Assembly (NCBI GenBank): GCA_000004695.1
Contig: CM000154.2
Location: 768,001 to 832,000 of the forward strand
Length of the DNA: 64,000 nucleotides
Origin: Dictyostelium discoideum
Taxonomy: Eukaryota
Direction: 5' to 3'
A program made the translations under genes and the position numbers. Positions 8,635 through 64,000 of the stretch are shown here, piece by piece. The notes beneath the pieces are model-generated. The model did no database searches. It worked only from the letters and a program-made list of their open reading frames with translations, and was not told the origin of the DNA. Each line of letters starts with the position of its first letter. The first letter of the stretch is position 1.

Positions 8635-9986
8635 ATGTTATTTATTTTAAAATTATTATTTTTATTATGTATTATTATTATAAAAATTAATGGAGAATTA
8701 TCAAATTATTATCAATATGAAATTGATAAAAAAATAAATGATAGAATTAATAATGGTAGAGAAAGTTTAGAATCAATTAAAAAGAATTCAATATCAAATA
8801 GATGTTTGGAGGAATGTATGGAAATATTATCAAATGGTTGTAAGGATATGGATGATTTATCAAAGAGTAGATTAGCAGTTAAATTAACCAATTGTCATTT
8901 GGCAAAGAGTGGTCACAAACAGTATCCATGTAGATTTGATATGTCAATACAAGATTGTACATCTAAAATGGATCAAATGGCATTCTCAACCTATACAAAT
9001 TTTTATATATCCACAGAAAATATTTGTTATTATCTATCACAGGAACTATTTCAACAACGTACAGAACAATCAATTAATAATCTTGTTACAAGTACACATA
9101 AAACTCAAACTGTGATTAATATATTACATTCAAAAGCAGATGACATCAATGAACAAGTTGACCTATCATTAAGCAATCAAAAAAAGTTATTACAAAATCA
9201 AAAACAATTAATCGACGATTTAGATAATAGTGCCAACACAATCAATGACATTGGTAAGAAATCCATTGAAATCGAACAATCCATAACTAAACAATCAAGA
9301 CAACAACAACAATTAATCGATTCACATGATCAACTTTCAAAACAATATCATGATCAATCTAAACAATCATTGGAATTAATTAATGAAATTAAACAATCAT
9401 CAGAAACAATGAATCAACAACAAAAACAATCATTAGAAAATCAAAATCATTTAATTCAATTACAATCTCAATCCATTCAATTCATTGAAACCATTGAAAC
9501 CATCACTGATACTTCATTATCAAAATTGAAACAAGTAATAACCTTTCAAGACCAATTATTAGATGGTAATAAAATTATTATTACAATCTTAAATCAATTA
9601 AATTTACTTCAAAATTGGATTTTATCTGAAGTTATTGATTTTAAATCAATTTATTTTTATATTTCAATTTTTTTAATTGTATGTAAATTTTTAAATAAAA
9701 AAAAAAAAAAAAAAAAAAAAAATTATTAACAAAATATTTTAAATTATAATAATAATAAAATGAAAAAAAAAAGATATATTTAATATCATCAACAAAAAGA
9801 ACCAAATCAACAAGAGTACCATTATTAATTGGATTAATTATTGATATTTTTGTTGAAAGATCAATTTGTTCAACAGTTTTATCATCTCCATCAACAACAA
9901 CATCAACATTATTTAATTTATTATCAATTTTATTCAATATTCCAATAATTAAGTTTATAAGGGAAAATTATTTATTATTTACAAAT

Positions 9987-10836: not shown

Positions 10837-11107
10837 AAAAAAAATTTTTTTTTTTTTTCTATATTCACCAAATAGTAAAACTTCTTTTTACTCCCAAGTT
10901 AAATTAATTTATTTTGGGAATTTATGGGTAAGTAAAAAAATTTTATTAATTTTTTTTTTTTTTTAAAAAAAATTAAAAAAATTAAAAATTAAAAATTTTT
11001 TTTTTTAATTTAATTTTTTTGGGAAAAACCCCCCCCATATATTTTTATTTCCAAAAATTTTTTTAAATTTTTTAAAAAAAATTATTATTATTATTTTAAA
11101 ATTAAGA

Positions 11108-11157
<50 letters not shown>

Positions 11158-11160
<3 letters not shown>

Positions 11161-14100
11161 AAATTAAATAAAATAATTTCAAATTATTTATTAATAATAA
11201 TAATTTCATTAATAATAATAACAACATCAACAATTGTTAATGGTTGTAAAGATGTTGTATTAGATTATACAGAAGATGTACCAAGTAGTTCAACTTCAAC
11301 ATGTTTAGGAACAACGCCATCAGTAACATTTAATAATTATCAGGTTTATAGTGTTTTCAAAATTTCACCAACACCAATTTCAATTGCAACCGATGTAAAT
11401 AAAAAGATAGTAACATTTAAATATGATACAACATATACTTTAAATTATAATGTTGGAGAAGGTTGTACAGAAAATACAAAAGCATTTAAATATGATTCAT
11501 TATCACCACCAGTTGCACAATTCACAGTTACTCAAGGAAAATGCTCATACTCTGAAAGTTCCATAACAATAACAAATCCTCAATCAATATCAGAATATGA
11601 ACTTAAATTAATTAATTCTACTAATGGTGGTGGTAATGGTATTATTAAATTAAATTCAACCAATCCAACTGCAACTATAAGTAAAAGTGGTCAATGGATA
11701 TTATCAGATTCTAGTTTAGGTGCTTCATATGAACCATGTGAAAGAGTGATTTCAATTGATCAACCATCAACAGGCTATCCAGAGTTTACAATTACTTCAC
11801 CAAGTTGTTATGGTAATAATGGTTCAATCGTTGTATCATCAGCTACTGCTTCAAGTTTCACTTCAATTACTTTAACAAATACATTGAATGGTAATTTAAT
11901 TACATCATCAAGTGTTGGTTCATTCACTTCACTTGAAAGTGGTAATTATATATTATCATTGACAAGTAATGCTTGTGGAAAACAATTAATTCCTGTAGCC
12001 CTGGATCCAATAATGCCAAGATTAGCATTCACCTACACCGATGTAACATGTCCATCAAAACCAAAGATTAAAGTATCAATTGATGATCCAAATATCCCAT
12101 CCACTGAAACATTTACAATGACAATCAATGGTATTGCATCAATTGATAATCTATTATCACCAATTATCACATTAGAAAATCAAACTTCTCTTCCATTTAC
12201 ATTCTCTTATAAAAATTGTTTATCAAGTTTTTCATTACCAATGAATCAACCACAAATGAATTTAGCATTTTCAATTGATAGCCAAGAGAATTCATTATAC
12301 GATTGCTCATTAACATCATCATCATCGTCGATTAATTTAAATTATGATAAATCAAGTATTACAGATTTAAATGTTAAATTAGTTAATGATGGTAGTACTA
12401 TAACACCAATTGATTCAAATTTAAATAAATATTCAATTAAAACTAATCAACAATTATCAATTTCATCATCATGTTATGTTAATCCATTATTCATTGAATT
12501 ACCACAACCTGAACCAATTATAAATGTTGATGGTGGAATTAATGGAATAGGTTGTTATGAGAATACTACGATTTCAGTTTATAATCATTTAGATTTTTCA
12601 TCAATAAAACTAGTACCATTAGATTCACCAACTACCTCTATACAATTAAATAGTGAAACTGGTCAATTTACAAATATTTATCGTAAATCTTATAATTTAG
12701 TTTACCAATATTGTTCAACATCAATTGAATCAAGTAAATTATTAAATCTTGCAAGTTCAACTTTAACTTCCTCTCAATATATTTTGGAACAAGATAGTAC
12801 TACAAATGATTTAGATTGTAAAACTGGTGGTGTTACTGTAAAAGCAACTTTTATAAAATCAGATTCAACAAAATTAGATCCAATTTATTCTTTTTTTAAT
12901 CCAAATCAAATTACACCAATTCAATTTAAAATCAATGATAATTGTATAATTGATTTAAATTTTAATCAAAATATTACTTTTAATTCAAATTGTAAGTATA
13001 ATACTAAAATTATAAATATTTATTTTAATAATGATTACTAATAATAATAATTGTTTTATGAAAATAGATTTAAATTTAAATAATAAACCAATAATTAAAA
13101 TTAATAATTCAACATGTTTATATTCAAATGATGGATCAATTGAAATTGATGGAAATGGTATTGATATTGGTAGTGTTTTAATTGGTGATCAATTATTTAG
13201 AAAATCTTCAAATGGAGTATATGGTGGTTTAAATGTTGGTAGTTATCAAGTTTCTTTAATTTATAGTACAATTAGTTCAAATCTATTTTGTGGTGGTCAA
13301 AAATATGATGTTGGTACCGTTACCATTGGTTCAATTGATTCTAGTTTTAATGTTGTTGTAAATTCAGTTTCAAATGCTAATTGTCAAACTAATGGTAATG
13401 ATGGTTCAATTACAATTGAAAATCCAACAACATTTAAATCAATTTCAATAGCAAGTGGTGGTGGTGGTGGTACAAATGTTGCAGTTAATGGTGTTTTATC
13501 AAATTTACAATCAGGTTTACATAAAGTTGATTTCGAAAGTATTGATTCAAAATGTAAAGGTTCATTCCCAGTTTTTGTTGGTAGTGCAGGTACAGAACCA
13601 ACTATTACTTTAAATTTAATTCAACCTTCAACATGTTATTCTGATCCTTCAATTTCATCAGTTTCAAATGTTATTGGTGATGGTATTCTCTCTATTGGTA
13701 TATTTAATTCATCAGGTGATAGTACGGAAGTTTCAAAAGTAATTGATGTAAATTCAAATAATTTACAATTCACAAGTCAAACTGGTGCTATACCAATTTC
13801 ACCAGGTAATAAAGTGTTAATCATTTATTCCGGTACATGTGCTTATAGAAAAACTATAACAATTCCACATACCGATCCATCATTATCATATAGTTCAACC
13901 TTTGATTACAATTGTTTTAATCAATTTGAAAATGGTATAATTTCAAGTTCATTAGAATCAAATTTCAATGTTGTTATAAATTCAGTTAAAGTTACAACAA
14001 CAACACCAACACCAACACCAACTACTACAACTTCAATTATTAATAACTCACCATTTGTAATTAATAATTTACAAAGTGGACAATATTCAGCATTAGTTAA

Positions 14101-54720: not shown

Positions 54721-54729
54721 TTGGTAAAA

Positions 54730-55123
54730 ATGGTTGCTAATGAACAACAACAACAACAACAAGAAGAAGAAAGAAAAGAGGTTAAACTCATTCAATCACC
54801 AAACGATAATAATAAATATAGATACGTTAAATTAAAGAATGGTTTAGAAGTTGTATTAGTATCTGATGAAACTACAGACCAATCATCATGTTGTTTATCA
54901 ATTAATATTGGTTCACTTTGTAATCCAAGAGAGATTGAAGGTTTAGCTCATTTTTTAGAGCATATGCTTTTCCTTGGTACTGAAAAATTTCCTGTTGAAA
55001 AAGAATTTGTAAATTTTATTTATTTAAATGGTGGTAGTTATAATGGTACAACTTCACGTATGTTTTTTTTTTAAATAAAAAATAAAAAAATAAAAAATAA
55101 ATAAAAAAATAAAATAATTAATT

Positions 55124-55154
<31 letters not shown>

Positions 55155-57733
55155 TTCCCAAAAATAATTAAGCAAATAAAACAAATTATTATTTTACGGT
55201 TAATCAAGAATCATTTGAAGAAGCATTAGATAGATTTTCATCATTTTTTATATCACCATTAATGAATGAGGATGCAGTTAATAGGGAATTGAATGCTGTG
55301 GATTCAGAACATAATAATAATATGCAAAAAGATTTTTGGAGAATGGATAGAATTGTTAATGATCAATTTGAAGGTCACCCAATGTCAATGTTTTTCACTG
55401 GTGATAGTTCAACCTTGAAACGTGATGATATCCGTGAGAAGGTTGTTGAATTCTATCAACGTTACTATAGTGCCAATTTAATGAAAGTTTGTATCTTTGG
55501 TAGGGAATCTTTGGATCAATTGGAGGAGTATGCAAATAAATACTTTTTACCAATTGTTAATAAGGATGTGAAAGTTCCAAAGCTTCCACCGTTGGCCATC
55601 ACGTCGAAATCGATAATGATCGAAGCAGAGCCAACACAAGATATGGATCTTTTGAAATTTGTTTTTCCAATACCCGATGAAAAGTTATGCTTCTCAAAGA
55701 ACTACAAGAATGCAAGTGCAAGCATTCTATCACATATATTGGGTCATGAATGCCAAGGTAGTCTATTTTCAGTGTTGTTCAATAAAGATTATGCATTCTC
55801 TCTATCCATTAGTAGTAATTCATTCTATGAGAATATGAACAAAATTGAAATTCAAATTCACCTAACCAAAACAGGCTTAGAGAATGTAGACGAAGTTATA
55901 GCCTTACTCTTTCAATCGTTTGAATTTGATACACCAGAATACTTTTTCACAGAGAAGAAACTTTTAAGTGAAATCAATTGGAAATCTTTTCAAAAAAGTG
56001 CACCCGCCAGCACCACCCAAGCCATCACCAGTAACTTGTTCCGTGTTGAAAGACCAGAGGAAACATTAAAGTATAATAACTTTTTAGAGCAATTTGCACC
56101 AGAGAAAATTAAAGAGATTCAAAGTTATCTTCGTCCTGATAATATGATTTGTTTATTCTATTCCTCAACCAAATTCAAAGGTAAAACCACCGAAATCGAA
56201 CCACATTATAAAATTAAATTCAACAAAAGATACATTGAACAATCAGATTTCGATAAATGGAAATCTTTCCCAAAGAATACCAATCTTTTCCTACCAAAAG
56301 AGAATCCATTCCTCCCAATCGATACTACCATCAAAGCGCCACAAGATCATTCAATTCATATTCCAAAGGAGGTTTACAACAACAATGGTGTTAAAGTCTA
56401 TCATTCATTGGACCATCGTTTCAATTCACCAAAGGCCAGAGTCAACATTCGTTTCGAATTGACTTCCTATGGTAATAATCAATCGATGGTAATGTGGAAT
56501 CTCTTAAAGAAATCACTTAAAGAGGTATTGAATGAAAAGATTCTTTACTATCTTTCAGTTTTAGATTTCTCAATGAAACTTCAAATTCTTACCACTCATG
56601 TAGAATTGCAATGCTATTGCTTCAATGATATCATCTTCACTGCGTTGGGCAAGGTTTTTGACTTTTTAATGAATTTAGATCTAAATGATATGCAATTCAA
56701 AAGAATCAAAGAAAAGGTTGCAAAAAGATTCCTCAGTAGTCATTATCTATCACCCTATCAAATTTCAATGCGTCATTTATCTTTACATAATTTTAATTGT
56801 AATTCAATGTTATTGGATAAACAAGAATACTTGAAAAAAGTGACAAAATCAGAATTCCTCAATTATTTCAAATCATTATTCTCCTATATCAATTTTAGCG
56901 CTATGGTAGTTGGTAATGCTTCCATTGAGGATGCTTGTGCTTTTGGTGAGAAACTCAATTCATTCTCTAATCGTAATTCCGCTTGTCCAGGTGAAGTTTT
57001 CAAATTGGCAAGAGTGAATTTACCATCGAATACAATCACTCATCAAAGAGAGTTTCTTTATGATACCAATCAAACCAATTGCTCCTCTTCCATTTCTTTC
57101 CTTATTGGTCAATTCAATAGAAAAACCTATGCAACTACATTGGTGATTTGTTCAATTTTAGGTAGTGCTTACTTTGAAGAACTTAGAACTAAAAAACAAT
57201 TTGGTTACGTTGTAAATTGTGCTCAAGATTGTACGGGAAATGCCATTTCAATGCGTTGTATCGTTCAGTCACACACTAAAACCCCTGAAGAAATTTTCGA
57301 TGCCACTATGGAATTCTTTGTTGGTTTTGAAAAAACTTTAGATTACTTCAAAACAAGTCCCTCTGATTTTAAGGATCTCATTGAGAATTGTCAAAAACAA
57401 AACACAGTAAAACAACAAAGTAATAGTGCTCAATCTTCGCTCTATTGGAGTTTCTTCACTTTTTGTGGTGATTTCGAATTTGAAAAAAAGAAATATGAAG
57501 ACATTGGTAAAATCACTTTTGATGATGTCAAACAATACTATCTCGATCATCTCTCTCCAAATACCGCTAATTTACGTATTTTCGCAGCTCATTGTTATCC
57601 ACAATCTTATCAAATTCCTGATGAAGTTAAACCTTTTGGAAATGTAAAAGTTAATCTCCTTAGAAAATATGAACATGATAATTTTAAAGAAAATCATGGT
57701 TATTTATCATCAAAAGTAAATTTACAAAAATAA
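54730..57733 (+). CDS. M16A zinc metallopeptidase, insulysin / insulin-degrading-enzyme-like (~962 aa). Exons 54730..55057 and 55173..57733.
   Basis: GLAHFLEHMLFLGTEKFP is the inverted HxxEH zinc motif. After a 115-nt GTATGT...TTAAG intron (phase 1), TNYYFTVNQESFEEALDRFSSFF and ELNAVDSEHNNNMQKDFWR match IDE blocks. The start is the ATG at 54730; the ORF-track M at 54721 is a TTG. Confidence 0.88.
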
Positions 57734-58725: not shown

Positions 58726-61401
58726 ATGGATGTAGAATTCACACCCAGTGACACAAATAAATTTGAAGCTAATATTACCAAACAACACCAAGTGATTGAA
58801 TTGAATAATCAAGAAGAACAACAACAACCAGAACAACAAGAACAACCAGAACAACAAGAAGAACTAAAAGATAATAACGAAAAGATAAAAACTAGTGAAG
58901 ATTCAACAACAACCACAACAACAACAGCAACAATTACAACCACTGGTGAAAACTCAATTTCAATTACAGTTACAGAGGCAAATAATAACACTAATCAATT
59001 AAATAAAAGCACTAGTAGCAGCAGTAGTTTAAATAATAATAAAAACGAAGACAATAAGAGTGTTACTGCATCAATTGCACCATCATCACCAGTCATTGAA
59101 TCATCTGCAATAGAATCAGCAATTGACTCACCATACATTTCATCTGCTTCAGTATTTTCAAACGCCACCAATAATAACAACAACACCACCACAACAAACG
59201 TTGTAGTACCACCACCACAATTACTTGAGTCTTCAACTGAAAATATTACATCTGCAGCTGAAATTACACCAGTGACAACAACAACAACAGAAGAGACAAT
59301 TAATATTCCAAAAGAATCAATAGAAGTACAAAAACAACTAGCAGAAACAACAACAACAGCAGCAATAACTACTACCAATTCAACACAAGTAACATCAACA
59401 ACTGTAACAAATCCAGATAAATTAAAGTGTAAAATGCATAGATCAAATTTTATAATGACACAAATTGGTGGAAAAAAATTCACAGAGATGACATTAGAAC
59501 AATTATTGGATGAAGATGACCCCCAAACTGGTATGGGGTTTAAGAATCCTGGTCCTCAAGGATTCTTAGAATATGTTGGTGATACTGCACCACCACCAAC
59601 ACCACCACCAATTTCAACATCCAACACAACTGGTAAAAATACAGGTAAAAACTCAACAACAGGTAAAAGTGAAGGCAAAAAAGCAACTTCAAACAGTTCA
59701 AATGTACCACCAAGTCCAGTACTTGCATCATCAGCTTCACCATCACCAAAATTAAAATCATCCTCATCTTCAATTAGAAATAGTGGTGCCATTTCAGGTA
59801 CAAGTGAAAATGGTGGTGGTGGTAATGGAAGTGGTACAATTTCAAAGAATACAGCACCTACAACAGGTAATTCTACTACCACCACCACCACCACCACATC
59901 TACAACAACATCATCATCAAAAGATAGAAAGAGTGTTGTTCAAAAACAATCAACATTAGGTAGATTACAAAAGAATGAAGAAGAAAGAAGAAAGAGAAAA
60001 GAACAAAAGAGAAGTCGTGCTCGTGAAAAACCAATTCTAATCGCAGGTATTGAGGATTTACCAGCTGAATGTTTAAAGATGGTAAAGAAATCAAAGATTC
60101 CAGAGGATAAATTAATTCAACACCTTAATATTTTATTACCAATACTTAGATTTAGAACTGGATATAATTTAAGACATGTACCAATTGTATCATCTAATAA
60201 TTCAACAAATTCTTTAGGTTCATCAATAAATAAAAATAATTCAAATAATACTACCACTACTACTACTACAACCAATACAAATAATAAATCACCAGAAGTC
60301 TCAACAAATAGTCTTGATGTAAATATAATAAACCAAAACCAAAACCAAACAAATTCTGTACAAAATAATCAAATTAACACAAGTTCAAATGTAATAACAA
60401 CAAATGTAATACCAACTACAACAGCATCTCAAAGTAGTCAAGCACCATACCATCCAAGTCATAACGGAAATGAAGAGGATGATTATGATGATGGATCACG
60501 TTTAGAGAATGCAATTTTACCAAAAGGTACCGTCGACTTGATTGAAACTGATAGAGACGTTAAAAAATTATATAAAAATTTAAAACAAATCGGAAGCGGT
60601 GGGTTTGGTAGTGTATTTTTAGCAAAATCAACCGTTGATAAATGTGAAATTGCCATTAAAAAGATTGCACATGTATCAGCAAAAGCACAAAGAACCAATC
60701 TCAATGAGATTGGATTTTTAAATTTCTGTAAGCATCCAAACATTGTCAGTTACTTAAGAAGTCATTTGGTTGATGATACCATTTGGATCGCTATGGAGTA
60801 TATGCAAGGTGGCACTTTAACCGAAGCAAGTCAAGGCCACACTTTCAATGAGTCGTGTATCGCTTACGTTGCAAAGGGTATGTTGGAAGGCTTAATGTAT
60901 TTACATGCTCACAACATCGTTCATAGGGATATTAAATCGGGTAACATTATGATGACCATCGATGGTAAAATCAAGATTGTCGATTTCGGTCTTTGTGTCG
61001 ACGCAAATGAAAGAAAATTAGTACATATGGCAGGTTCCCCTTTTTGGATGTCTCCAGAGATGATTCGTGGTGAGTCCTATGGCTGTCCAACCGATATTTG
61101 GAGTTTTGCAATTTGTCTTTTGGAATTGGCAAATGGTGAACCACCCCACAGAAAATCTTCCCTCACTGCTATGTTCACCACTGCAACTGAGGGTTGTGCA
61201 GGTTTGGACAAACCTGAAAGATGGACCGAACACTTTACTCATTTCTTAAATCTTTGTTTAGAAATGGATCCTTCAAAGAGATCAACTGCCGAACAACTTT
61301 TAAAACATCCTTGGATTAATTTATCTGAAAATCCTGAAACTATGAAAAAGATTTTAGCTCAAATTTTCATTGCGAATGTTATGAATCATTTAGATAATTA
61401 A
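58726..61401 (+). CDS. STE20/PAK-family serine/threonine protein kinase (891 aa, C-terminal kinase domain).
   Basis: Kinase subdomains: IGSGGFGSVFLAKS, AIKKI, HPNIVSY, VHRDIKSGNIMM, IVDFGLC and GSPFWMSPE (compare PAK GTPYWMAPE). The long N-terminal half is T/S/N/Q-rich low complexity. Confidence 0.9.
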   Translation: MDVEFTPSDTNKFEANITKQHQVIELNNQEEQQQPEQQEQPEQQEELKDNNEKIKTSEDSTTTTTTTATITTTGENSISITVTEANNNTNQLNKSTSSSSSLNNNKNEDNKSVTASIAPSSPVIESSAIESAIDSPYISSASVFSNATNNNNNTTTTNVVVPPPQLLESSTENITSAAEITPVTTTTTEETINIPKESIEVQKQLAETTTTAAITTTNSTQVTSTTVTNPDKLKCKMHRSNFIMTQIGGKKFTEMTLEQLLDEDDPQTGMGFKNPGPQGFLEYVGDTAPPPTPPPISTSNTTGKNTGKNSTTGKSEGKKATSNSSNVPPSPVLASSASPSPKLKSSSSSIRNSGAISGTSENGGGGNGSGTISKNTAPTTGNSTTTTTTTTSTTTSSSKDRKSVVQKQSTLGRLQKNEEERRKRKEQKRSRAREKPILIAGIEDLPAECLKMVKKSKIPEDKLIQHLNILLPILRFRTGYNLRHVPIVSSNNSTNSLGSSINKNNSNNTTTTTTTTNTNNKSPEVSTNSLDVNIINQNQNQTNSVQNNQINTSSNVITTNVIPTTTASQSSQAPYHPSHNGNEEDDYDDGSRLENAILPKGTVDLIETDRDVKKLYKNLKQIGSGGFGSVFLAKSTVDKCEIAIKKIAHVSAKAQRTNLNEIGFLNFCKHPNIVSYLRSHLVDDTIWIAMEYMQGGTLTEASQGHTFNESCIAYVAKGMLEGLMYLHAHNIVHRDIKSGNIMMTIDGKIKIVDFGLCVDANERKLVHMAGSPFWMSPEMIRGESYGCPTDIWSFAICLLELANGEPPHRKSSLTAMFTTATEGCAGLDKPERWTEHFTHFLNLCLEMDPSKRSTAEQLLKHPWINLSENPETMKKILAQIFIANVMNHLDN

Positions 61402-61409
61402 TTGGAATT

Positions 61410-61446
<37 letters not shown>

Positions 61447-61647
61447 AAACAAAACAAATCAAAAAACAAAAACAAAAAAAAACTATAAATTATTATTATT
61501 AATGAAACGAAAATAATAATATTAAAAAAAAAAAAAAAAAAAATAATCAAATAATAAAAAAAAACAATCAAATAATAAAAAAAAATTAAATAAAAAAAAA
61601 ACTTAATAATATTAAAAACTTAATGAGAAAATAAAATATAAAATTGT

Positions 61648-61923
61648 TTATTTTTTATCTTTAAAATAAACAACTAATAAAGTAATAGATTCTATAATTA
61701 CTCCAAGTAAAATCACTCCCAGAATAAATCTAAAAATTCTTTTTTTTAATTGATCATATACACCAAATGGTTTTGAATAAGGAATTTGATTTTCAATATC
61801 TTTCAAAAGAATTTCTTTATTTTTCTCCCTTTTTTTTTTTTTTATGAAAATTAATATAAATAAAAATAAAAAGTTTCAATAAAAAGGAAAATTTAATTTT
61901 AAAAAAAGTAATTACTCTTGCAT
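61648..61923 (-). CDS. Small tail-anchored membrane protein, family member A (~63 aa). Exons 61916..61923 and 61648..61828.
   Basis: ATGCAAGA|GTAATT, then an 87-nt intron to AAAAAG|, then EEKNKEILLKDIENQIPYSKPFGVYDQLKKRIFRFILGVILLGVIIESITLLVVYFKDKK*. The hydrophobic segment is near the C-terminus. Confidence 0.5.
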
Positions 61924-62598
61924 TATAATTATGATAAATTGTTTTTTTAAAAAAAGTTTTTTTTTTTTTCTTTTTATCATTAAATTGTTGTATGATTTAA
62001 TAAAAATGGTGGGAATTTGGAAAGGATTAATACATATTCATGGATTTATTTTCATAAAATAATATTTTGAGAGGTAAAACCTTGAAAAAAAAAAAAAAAA
62101 TAAAAAAATAAAAAAATAAAATTAGAAAATTTATTTTTTTTTGGAAAATTGAGAGTAAGCATCTCAAAAAAAAAAAAAAAAAAATATTTTTTTTTTAATC
62201 ATTTTTAAATTATTTTGGATGAGTTGGTGATAATTGTGTTACATTATTAAATGCATTATATGTGATATTGGATTAATGTTATTATTTTTTATATGCAAAT
62301 GATTAATTAGTTAATATTTCAAATAATTAAAAATAATAATAAAATAAAAAAAAAAAATAAAAAAATGAATAAATTAAATATTAAAAAAAAATTTAAGCAC
62401 TAAAATTTTTTTTTTTTTGACATTTTTAAATTAAAAATAATAATGGAATTATTAAATAATAGAAAATTAATTTTATAGTATATATGTACTTTGAGATGTG
62501 ATCAATCTATATTTTATTTTATTTTATTTTATTATATAATAAAAAAAAAAAAACCAATTTTAAAGATTAATAGGGTTTAAAATTTTCCAAGCCAATTA

Positions 62599-62875
62599 TT
62601 ATTTTAATTTATTAACAAAAGTGGCTGCACAAGTTGCAATTAAAGCAATCAAAATAATAGTAAGGAAACATAAAAGTGTTCTCCATTGTCTTTGTTTTTT
62701 AAGTTGGAGTTCCTTTTGGATTGTTGTTTCGGACTCATTAGTTTTTTGGTTATTTCCAACTTCAATTTCAATATCTTTTACAACTATTTGTTGTGTTGTT
62801 CTATTAAAATTAAAATTAAAGTTAATATAATTTTTAAAATGAAATAAATAATATAATATGATATTACTCTCCCAT
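62599..62875 (-). CDS. Small tail-anchored membrane protein, family member B (~68 aa). Exons 62868..62875 and 62599..62800.
   Basis: ATGGGAGA|GTAATA, a 67-nt intron, TTAATAG|, then ETTQQIVVKDIEIEVGNNQKTNESETTIQKELQLKKQRQWRTLLCFLTIILIALIATCAATFVNKLK*. The intron position and phase are identical to member A (after codon 2, phase 2). Confidence 0.55.
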
Positions 62876-62960
62876 TATAAAATGTAATAAAGTTTTAAAG
62901 TTTTTAATTTAATTTAAAGTTTGTAGTTTTAGATAATAAAATTATTATTTTTCATTTTTA

Positions 62961-63020
<60 letters not shown>

Positions 63021-63705
63021 ATTGCTTCAATGAAACTTAATTAATGAATTGCAGCCTTTTTAAAAAAAATAATTATATACATATAAATAAAAAAAGGTGG
63101 GAAATATTTGGTTTATGATCTTCAATTCATATGGATTGCAACGTGTTTGTTTTAATTTAAAAAAAAAAAAAAAATTAAAAATAAAAAAATAAATTTTCGT
63201 TGAAAACCTAAAATAAAAAAAAAAAAAAATGATGAAACTGGTTAGATTTTTGGTATTGAATAAATTAAAATTTCATTATAAGATATACAATATAAACTTT
63301 TCTTTTAATTGTTTTGATTTTATTTGATTTTATTAATTAATATATATATATATATTTTATTTAAAGTTTTTGGAATGGGATTTTTTTGTTATTGATAAAA
63401 TTTCAAAACACTATTTATTATTTTTATTTTTATTTTAATTTTTTTTTTTTTATAATTTAAAATTTAAAATTTAATATTTTATAATATTAATTATTTTATT
63501 TTATTTTGGATGAAAGGTTATTTTCTTGGTAAAAATTTCTTTTTTGTTTTATTCATTTTAACCAAGTTACATTATTACAAAATCCATTTCTTTTTTTATT
63601 ATTTTTTTTTTTATTTTTATTTTTTTTTTCAATCGGAATGTTAATTAAAAACTTTGAGAAAATTGAAATCTATCAATGAAGATTTGATTTACCTCTTCTT
63701 TATTT

Positions 63706-63886
63706 TTATTTGATGGTAGTGGTAAGAATAGGAACTATTATTGCAACCATTGCAATTATTAAAAGTAATGTTATGAGAATTTTAAATTGAATTCTCTTTT
63801 TTTTTTCTTTGTTATATTCTTCATTAGCTTTTCTTGATTGCTCTAGTGTGATTGAATAAGATGTTTTTTCAAAATCTTTTGAACCC
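63706..63886 (-). CDS. Small tail-anchored membrane protein, family member C. Only the 3' exon is resolved; the 5' exon was not found inside the window.
   Basis: ...GSKDFEKTSYSITLEQSRKANEEYNKEKKREFNLKILITLLLIIAMVAIIVPILTTTIK*. It is similar to B, including the KD[IF]E motif and a basic juxtamembrane region. Confidence 0.35.
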
Positions 63887-64000
63887 CTATTATCTAATAA
63901 AAAGCTATCACCAATCCCTATTATTTTTTTATTATTATTACTTTTTGTATTTTTTTTTTTTTTTTTTTTTTTATTATGTTTGAGTACTTTTTTTTTAAAA

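Follow-up and report, generated by a model that had tools for sequence, protein, structure and literature searches.

A probable tandem cluster of three very small genes with 8-nt first exons and predicted tail-anchored products in Dictyostelium discoideum

The final 2.4 kb of a 64,000-nt stretch of Dictyostelium discoideum AX4 chromosome 5 (contig CM000154.2, positions 768,001 to 832,000; hereafter the window) contains three minus-strand units, referred to here as genes A, B and C, all of which are present at the positions first claimed for them. We propose that these units are probably three very small protein-coding genes clustered in tandem on the same strand, each possessing an 8-nt first exon, a short phase-2 intron and a tail-anchored (TA) product. 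The genes run in the order C, B, A on one strand with a spacing of ~1 kb, towards a convergently oriented protein-kinase gene. Dictyostelium commonly has small membrane proteins of restricted lineage, and this family has so far been seen only in two group-4 species, D. discoideum and Dictyostelium firmibasis. The value of the result is mainly at the level of annotation, in that cross-species conservation backs micro-genes with first exons of 8 nt and adds a third, better-conserved gene. The locus also provides a small, clean case of tandem duplication and rapid microprotein divergence with an identifiable conserved promoter element. It opens no new mechanism, settles no open question and does not represent a new kind of system.

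The original prediction, which was made from the letters of the window, described A and B as minus-strand units that begin ATG-NNN-GA|GTAAT and continue through an intron of 67-87 nt, and its coordinates (Table 1) splice to exact public proteins. Spliced A (MQEEKNKEILLKDIENQIPYSKPFGVYDQLKKRIFRFILGVILLGVIIESITLLVVYFKDKK, 62 aa) was found by exact look-up to be identical, from the first to the last residue, to XP_637102/Q54JQ0 (DDB_G0287865, 'putative uncharacterized transmembrane protein'). An identical look-up matched spliced B (MGETTQQIVVKDIEIEVGNNQKTNESETTIQKELQLKKQRQWRTLLCFLTIILIALIATCAATFVNKLK, 69 aa) over its entire length to XP_637103/Q54JP9 (DDB_G0287903, 'transmembrane protein'), while a look-up of the contig encoding B returned no record. 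Both genes are already annotated as hypothetical proteins, 8-nt first exons included. The public entries have the same sequence and exon structure as A and B and give no family, function or mutual relationship. The start context TATAATGNRAGAGTAAT is common to the two genes and takes the consensus form TATAATG-NRA-GAGTAAT.

Among 1.84 billion representatives, a HMMER profile search gave a single credible non-self match (P0004, E = 8e-4), the D. firmibasis protein KAK5578636.1. The second non-self match (P0003) is a repeat protein that aligns solely at a QLKK(R)RQ stretch and was discarded as spurious. KAK5578636.1 (RB653_008308, 71 aa) shares 48% identity with B across the first 50 residues (E = 1e-12, pairwise) and 44% over the full length. 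Like B, it starts MGE, is encoded with an 8-nt first exon (ATGGGAGA|GTAAAA) and a phase-2 intron of 93 nt, lies beside a kinase gene and is preceded by a conserved upstream element. The frame, length and intron are kept between the two species and the indels are in-frame. The D. firmibasis locus, L001, is syntenic with the window, presenting the small gene, then the kinase (878 aa, with Pkinase matches), then an M16 peptidase (959 aa), with kinase and peptidase on the strand opposite to the small gene. Unlike B, KAK5578636.1 directly adjoins the kinase because no copy of A is present there.

The same locus contains an uncalled gene ~820 nt upstream of the ATG of the B orthologue (L001 8880-9181, plus strand), and this gene is the orthologue of C. 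Its structure is ATGGATGA|GTAAAT, a 59-nt intron ending AAAAAG and then one exon, giving a product of 80 aa (MDDNNNKIIGIEDNFLTEDPNSPQTCEKSTYTITLEQKKISDEEYRREKKKRIQFQILLLSLLVIATAAILVPILTTTIK). Comparison of the C exon in the window with that of D. firmibasis demonstrates 61-63% amino acid identity (tblastn E = 1e-25). Upstream of exon 2 of the D. firmibasis gene the frame meets an in-frame TAA with no ATG before it, and the 8-nt exon and phase-2 splice are therefore required in that species. The acceptor AAAAAG|TAATAATAAT is identical in the window (63941/63940) and in the D. firmibasis orthologue. Because this acceptor is conserved, exon 2 of D. discoideum C is placed as listed in Table 1, and the full product is predicted to be ~80 aa with exon 1 beyond base 64000. 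The suggestion that C shares the intron of its neighbours is in this way borne out indirectly. The suggestion that all three products are ~65 aa long suits A (62 aa) and B (69 aa) and does not hold for C. The C orthologue pair yielded a nonsynonymous divergence (dN) of 0.24, a synonymous divergence (dS) of 1.03 and a dN/dS of ~0.23, with all indels in-frame. C is under purifying selection and is the best conserved of the three genes.

No protein in the public collection searched contains the C exon sequence (word-indexed search), nor does that collection include any of ten guessed full-length C models, among them that from D. firmibasis. C appears to be a missed annotation in both species. The MAKER annotation of D. 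firmibasis drew its evidence from Trinity transcripts together with the proteome of D. discoideum (PMC11193728), and the orthologue of a gene that itself lacks annotation could easily escape such a procedure. Taken as syntenic orthologues whose frames are kept, B and C are indicated to be real, conserved genes. Together with the agreement of the A and B models with public annotation, this upholds the earlier view that the units are genuine genes and not chance open reading frames (ORFs).

The composition of the window is consistent with this assignment. Its overall GC content is ~22%, and it contains long homopolymer runs as well as short introns of the form GTAA...AG. The exons of A, B and C reach 21-33% GC, most flanking and intergenic windows fall at 3-16%, and the upstream elements of A and B also make small GC peaks (~22%). 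An open frame of 60-78 codons in DNA of such composition has a chance probability of 2e-4 to 1.5e-3. A six-frame scan of the window for a basic stretch followed by a hydrophobic 19-mer and a tail of no more than 10 aa returned nine ORFs, namely A, B, C and six poly-F/poly-K junk frames. The first exons ATGCAAGA (A), ATGGGAGA (B, in both species) and ATGGATGA (D. firmibasis C) are all 8 nt in length, end in phase 2 and are followed by GTAA. The string ATGNNNGAGTAAT occurs in the 64 kb solely at the A and B starts, with 0.09 occurrences expected. The looser pattern ATG-N5-GTAA is not enriched across the window (16 observed vs 11.6 expected).

The resemblance between units A and B appears to extend into their non-coding DNA. 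A/T runs swamped both MAFFT and plain Smith-Waterman alignments of the intergenic sequence, and chaining of GC-containing k-mers was used instead. This procedure recovered a colinear chain of 14 GC-containing 8-mers between the two units; the longest chain in 500 shuffles had 13, and the reverse-complement control gave 4. A coding block of 35 nt around the KDIE motif is 77% identical between A and B (family D17). Upstream of both genes lies a composite, AATCCAT(N0-2)GAAT...CCAAAT...TTCCCACC, which occurs twice in the window and in none of 100 shuffles. The corresponding block of B (ACGTTGCAAT...AATTGAAGATCATAAACCAAA...TT(T)CCCACC followed by a T-run) is conserved in both species amid low-complexity intergenic DNA and is followed downstream by a TATA-like sequence and an oligo-T run, and it may represent a proximal promoter element. 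The pattern TCTCA(N0-2)AAGT has four matches in the window, three of which lie on the minus strand shortly downstream of the A, B and C stops. This short 3' motif is the only non-coding similarity of C to the A and B units, the upstream region of C lying off the window.

In D. firmibasis the B orthologue and the kinase are 281 nt apart, and no sequence resembling A was detected in that interval or elsewhere in L001. In a cross-species blastn comparison the two C genes align with each other, and the B promoter, the B gene and the kinase-proximal flank each align with the corresponding region of the other species. D. discoideum positions 62651..61562 are left unmatched, apart from a weak 51-nt match between the A leader and the D. 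firmibasis B leader. A lies within ~0.9 kb of DNA that is specific to D. discoideum and colinear with unit B, and it is most likely a lineage-specific, fast-diverged tandem duplicate of the B unit. It may alternatively have been lost in D. firmibasis instead of gained in the D. discoideum lineage. In the history that we favor, an older tandem duplication, preceding the split between D. discoideum and D. firmibasis, would have given rise to C and B. A would then have come from a later duplication that copied the B unit along with its promoter, and would subsequently have diverged quickly.

A number of points weigh against the interpretation of the cluster as a family of functional TA genes. Pairwise BLASTP gave no significant similarity among the products (A-B, E = 0.81; B-C, E = 3.8; A-C, no alignment), and hhalign of the soluble parts returned probabilities of 0.1% for the B family against the C family and 0.4% for the B family against A. 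Thus, at the protein level, the apparent similarity among the three is not significant, an outcome that the original prediction itself had named as refuting it, and paralogy must be argued from structure, order and non-coding DNA. The case for common descent of C with A and B has gene structure and position as its sole basis. The upstream composite and the 3' motifs are post hoc definitions, taken from the very sequences in which they were counted, and must be weighted accordingly. B is estimated to evolve almost neutrally (dN/dS ~0.76 for the orthologue pair). A could be a decaying copy, given that it has no orthologue, the lowest exon GC and a Glu within its transmembrane domain (TMD). The identifiers DDB_G0287865 and DDB_G0287903 occur neither in searchable full texts nor in the supplements of six papers of transcriptome, proteome or comparative type (PMC6198379, PMC4403905, PMC7078664, PMC8535579, PMC4931340, PMC11367525). 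Finally, the proposed targeting to the endoplasmic reticulum (ER) or endomembrane system and the proposed function are drawn from general rules for TA proteins.

The most serious of the alternatives concerns A, which might be a non-functional, decaying or spurious ORF within a recent copy of the B unit that was annotated as a prediction, with B and C being real. We consider this rather unlikely. In addition to being missing from the syntenic 281-nt interval and the remainder of L001, A has no homologue in 5.8 billion clusters, its exon GC is 21-23% vs 30-33% for B, its TMD (FILGVILLGVIIESITLLVVYF, followed by the tail KDKK) carries a charged Glu, and the dN/dS between A and B is ~0.86. Against this, the frame of A is open over 62 codons (chance ~1.5e-3), the gene keeps an intact ATG, GA|GTAAT donor, AG acceptor and promoter-like element, and the product retains the TA architecture.

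A second alternative holds that A, B and C are three unrelated neighboring small genes, the 8-nt exon and TA shape being convergent or common in small Dictyostelium genes. The lack of significant protein similarity agrees with this explanation, as does the ease with which AT-rich coding sequence gives K-rich and I/L/F-rich segments. The KD[IF]E motif that had been proposed as a shared feature points in the same direction for C, since the C orthologue has QTCE where the window C has KDFE. On this comparison the motif is judged homologous between A and B and coincidental in C. Shuffle tests that keep the soluble/TMD architecture gave p ~0.007 for the N-terminal parts of A and B, a marginal result for B and C, and no significance for A and C. 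Convergence is, however, difficult to reconcile with the gene structure, as five of five gene copies in two species have identical exon-1 length, terminal GA, phase and GTAA donor. The absence of enrichment of ATG-N5-GTAA in the window and the restriction of ATGNNNGAGTAAT to A and B likewise argue against it, as do the arrangement of the three genes on one strand ~1 kb apart, the DNA colinearity of units A and B and the 3' motif common to all three. An unrelated origin consequently seems improbable. Support for paralogy comes from gene structure, from the tandem arrangement and from colinear non-coding DNA; protein similarity does not establish it. Of the paralogous trio first proposed, the shared 8-nt exon and phase-2 intron and the tandem order stand, and the protein similarity does not.

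The architecture of the products agrees with the earlier description of a basic stretch, a hydrophobic helix of ~20 aa and a short tail. The TMDs of D. discoideum A, B and C and of D. firmibasis B and C are 22-25 aa long with GRAVY values of 2.3-2.7. In all five proteins the ten residues before the TMD are K/R-rich with a net charge of +3 to +5, and the tail of 1-4 residues has a net charge of +1 to +2. For the three D. discoideum products taken by themselves, the juxtamembrane charge is +3 to +4 and the GRAVY of the TMD 2.5-2.6. The hydrophilic N-terminal part is 36-54 aa, with N-termini (MQEEKNKE, MGETTQQ and MDDNNNK) that were examined by inspection, and the sole hydrophobic window is C-terminal. 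Membership of the TA class requires one transmembrane segment no more than ~30-40 residues from the C-terminus, with a very short tail after it and no signal peptide at the N-terminus. The proteins are accordingly predicted to have TA topology, with a single C-terminal TMD, a short tail and no N-terminal hydrophobic segment. An AlphaFold single-sequence model consists of one long helix (pLDDT 69) and is uninformative beyond the TMD. Within the TA class, Sec61-beta, cytochrome b5 and synaptobrevin-type SNAREs are likewise anchored by one TMD at their extreme C-terminus, have basic flanks, and begin with a hydrophilic N-terminus that lacks a signal peptide.

Post-translational insertion, dependent on GET/TRC40 or on EMC/SND, is the expected route for TA proteins. 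A TMD within 4 residues of the C-terminus should be unable to leave the ribosome before termination. Insertion of A, B and C would therefore be post-translational. By general TA rules, the high TMD hydrophobicity and weakly basic tail would favor GET/TRC40-type insertion into the ER, leaving the N-terminal part in the cytosol. At the ER the proteins might serve as small membrane-bound adaptor or regulatory subunits. Regulin-type micropeptides such as phospholamban and sarcolipin offer a functional analogy, being of similar size (50-80 aa) and pairing one C-terminal TMD with a short N-terminal part in the cytosol. A, B and C show no sequence similarity to phospholamban, sarcolipin or other regulins. 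A more elaborate proposal would view the genes as taxon-restricted TA microproteins at three ages, with C old and under purifying selection, B evolving fast and A newborn with its own promoter, all acting as regulin-like subunits of a membrane complex. We regard this proposal as unlikely.

It is very unlikely that the genes are divergent members of a known TA family, such as the SNAREs or small translocon or TOM subunits, that lie beyond sequence detection, even though a basic juxtamembrane stretch and C-terminal TMD are common to SNAREs and other TA proteins. Pfam gave nothing at threshold, the best E values (0.0017-0.2) being to unrelated domains of unknown function, and no SNARE-family match appeared even at E <= 10. 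The PDB sequence search found no matching chain, and the profile search of 1.84 billion proteins found the D. firmibasis orthologue alone. Word-indexed homology searches returned self-matches only for A and B and nothing for C, and two metagenome scans, one using the C alignment and one the B alignment, returned no relatives. The SNARE motif spans ~53-60 aa, is built of heptad repeats around a central Q/R layer and is recognised by Pfam SNARE/Synaptobrevin models. A, B and C are not SNAREs because 36-54 aa of cytosolic sequence cannot accommodate this motif and no SNARE model matches them. The SNARE-like C-termini noticed originally reduce to a generic TA appearance. No sequence relationship links A, B and C to Sec61-beta, cytochrome b5 or the SNAREs, and a SNARE motif or b5 domain is much longer than their cytosolic part. 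Two further possibilities were set aside. At the MG start of B, N-myristoylation was discarded because the Glu after Gly breaks the usual consensus, and inspection of the N-terminal parts for FFAT or LIR motifs gave no convincing match kept in both species.

Table 1 Positions of the coding and non-coding features of the A, B and C units in the window
Feature	Position	Strand	Details
Gene A exon 1	61923..61916	-	ATGCAAGA, 8 nt
Gene A intron	61915..61829	-	87 nt, GTAAT...AG, phase 2; model equals annotation
Gene A exon 2	61828..61648	-	Includes stop TAA 61650..61648; spliced product 62 aa
Gene B exon 1	62875..62868	-	ATGGGAGA, 8 nt; same 8 nt in D. firmibasis, L001 10001-10008
Gene B intron	62867..62801	-	67 nt, phase 2; D. 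firmibasis orthologue has the same position and phase, 93 nt
Gene B exon 2	62800..62599	-	Includes stop 62601..62599; spliced product 69 aa
Gene C exon 2	63940..63706	-	1 nt + 77 codons + stop; D. firmibasis orthologue exon L001 8947-9181
Gene C intron 1, 3' part	63941..64000	-	Acceptor AAAAAG|T at 63941/63940, conserved with D. firmibasis
Upstream element of A	62008..62046	-	AATCCATGAAT..CCAAAT..TTCCCACC, ~85 nt before ATG
Conserved proximal upstream element of B	63090..63144	-	ACGTTGCAATCCATATGAATTGAAGATCATAAACCAAATATTTCCCACC + T-run; kept in D. firmibasis, partly shared with unit A
3'-flank motif of A	61618..61628	-	TCTCATTAAGT, 20 nt past stop
3'-flank motif of B	62488..62496	-	TCTCAAAGT, ~100 nt past stop
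3'-flank motif of C	63651..63659	-	TCTCAAAGT, ~47 nt past stop

Several additional observations were made in the non-coding parts of the cluster. The TTCCCACC core, found on the minus strand at 62008-62015 and 63096-63103 and in L001 at ~9785-9792, has the CCC triplet of the DUSE and is C-rich in the manner of CA-type elements. The DUSE of group-4 Dictyostelium non-coding RNA genes has three consecutive C and lies ~60 nt upstream of Class I RNA, small nuclear RNA and small nucleolar RNA genes (PMC7919456). Rfam returned no family at gathering score across the window and none at E <= 1 in 61400-64000, and on these searches TTCCCACC was not assigned to a DUSE-driven non-coding RNA gene. Between the B promoter element and the B ATG the minus strand has an unbroken run of ~65 A (62965-63030), which presumably lies inside the B 5' leader; in its place the leader in D. 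firmibasis shows several shorter runs of A. The blocks TAATAATGTAAC and TCATCCAAAATA occur in the same order far upstream in units A and B (62203-62245 and 63494-63573, minus strand), with a spacing of 16 vs 53 nt, and may be duplication remnants or regulatory sites.

The remaining observations concern neighboring genes. The kinase ORF that is convergent with gene A (58726-61401, plus strand) is uninterrupted over 891 aa and has a long low-complexity N-terminal half. Its exact 891-aa translation has no match in the protein collection, and for this reason the public kinase model probably differs from the ORF in its start or in an intron. Two plus-strand ORFs at 54721-55074 (117 aa) and 55262-57733 (823 aa) look like exons of one M16 (insulinase-type) peptidase gene separated by a short intron. 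The tblastn matches of B and C at window positions 11065-11250 are not family members; they fall on a large secreted protein, in its poly-K leader and its signal peptide. The ORF that gave these spurious matches, 627 aa at 11158-13041 (plus strand), has a signal-peptide-like N-terminal segment and is preceded by a run of ~50 A, with a possible micro-exon start, ATGGGTAAGTAA, at 10924.

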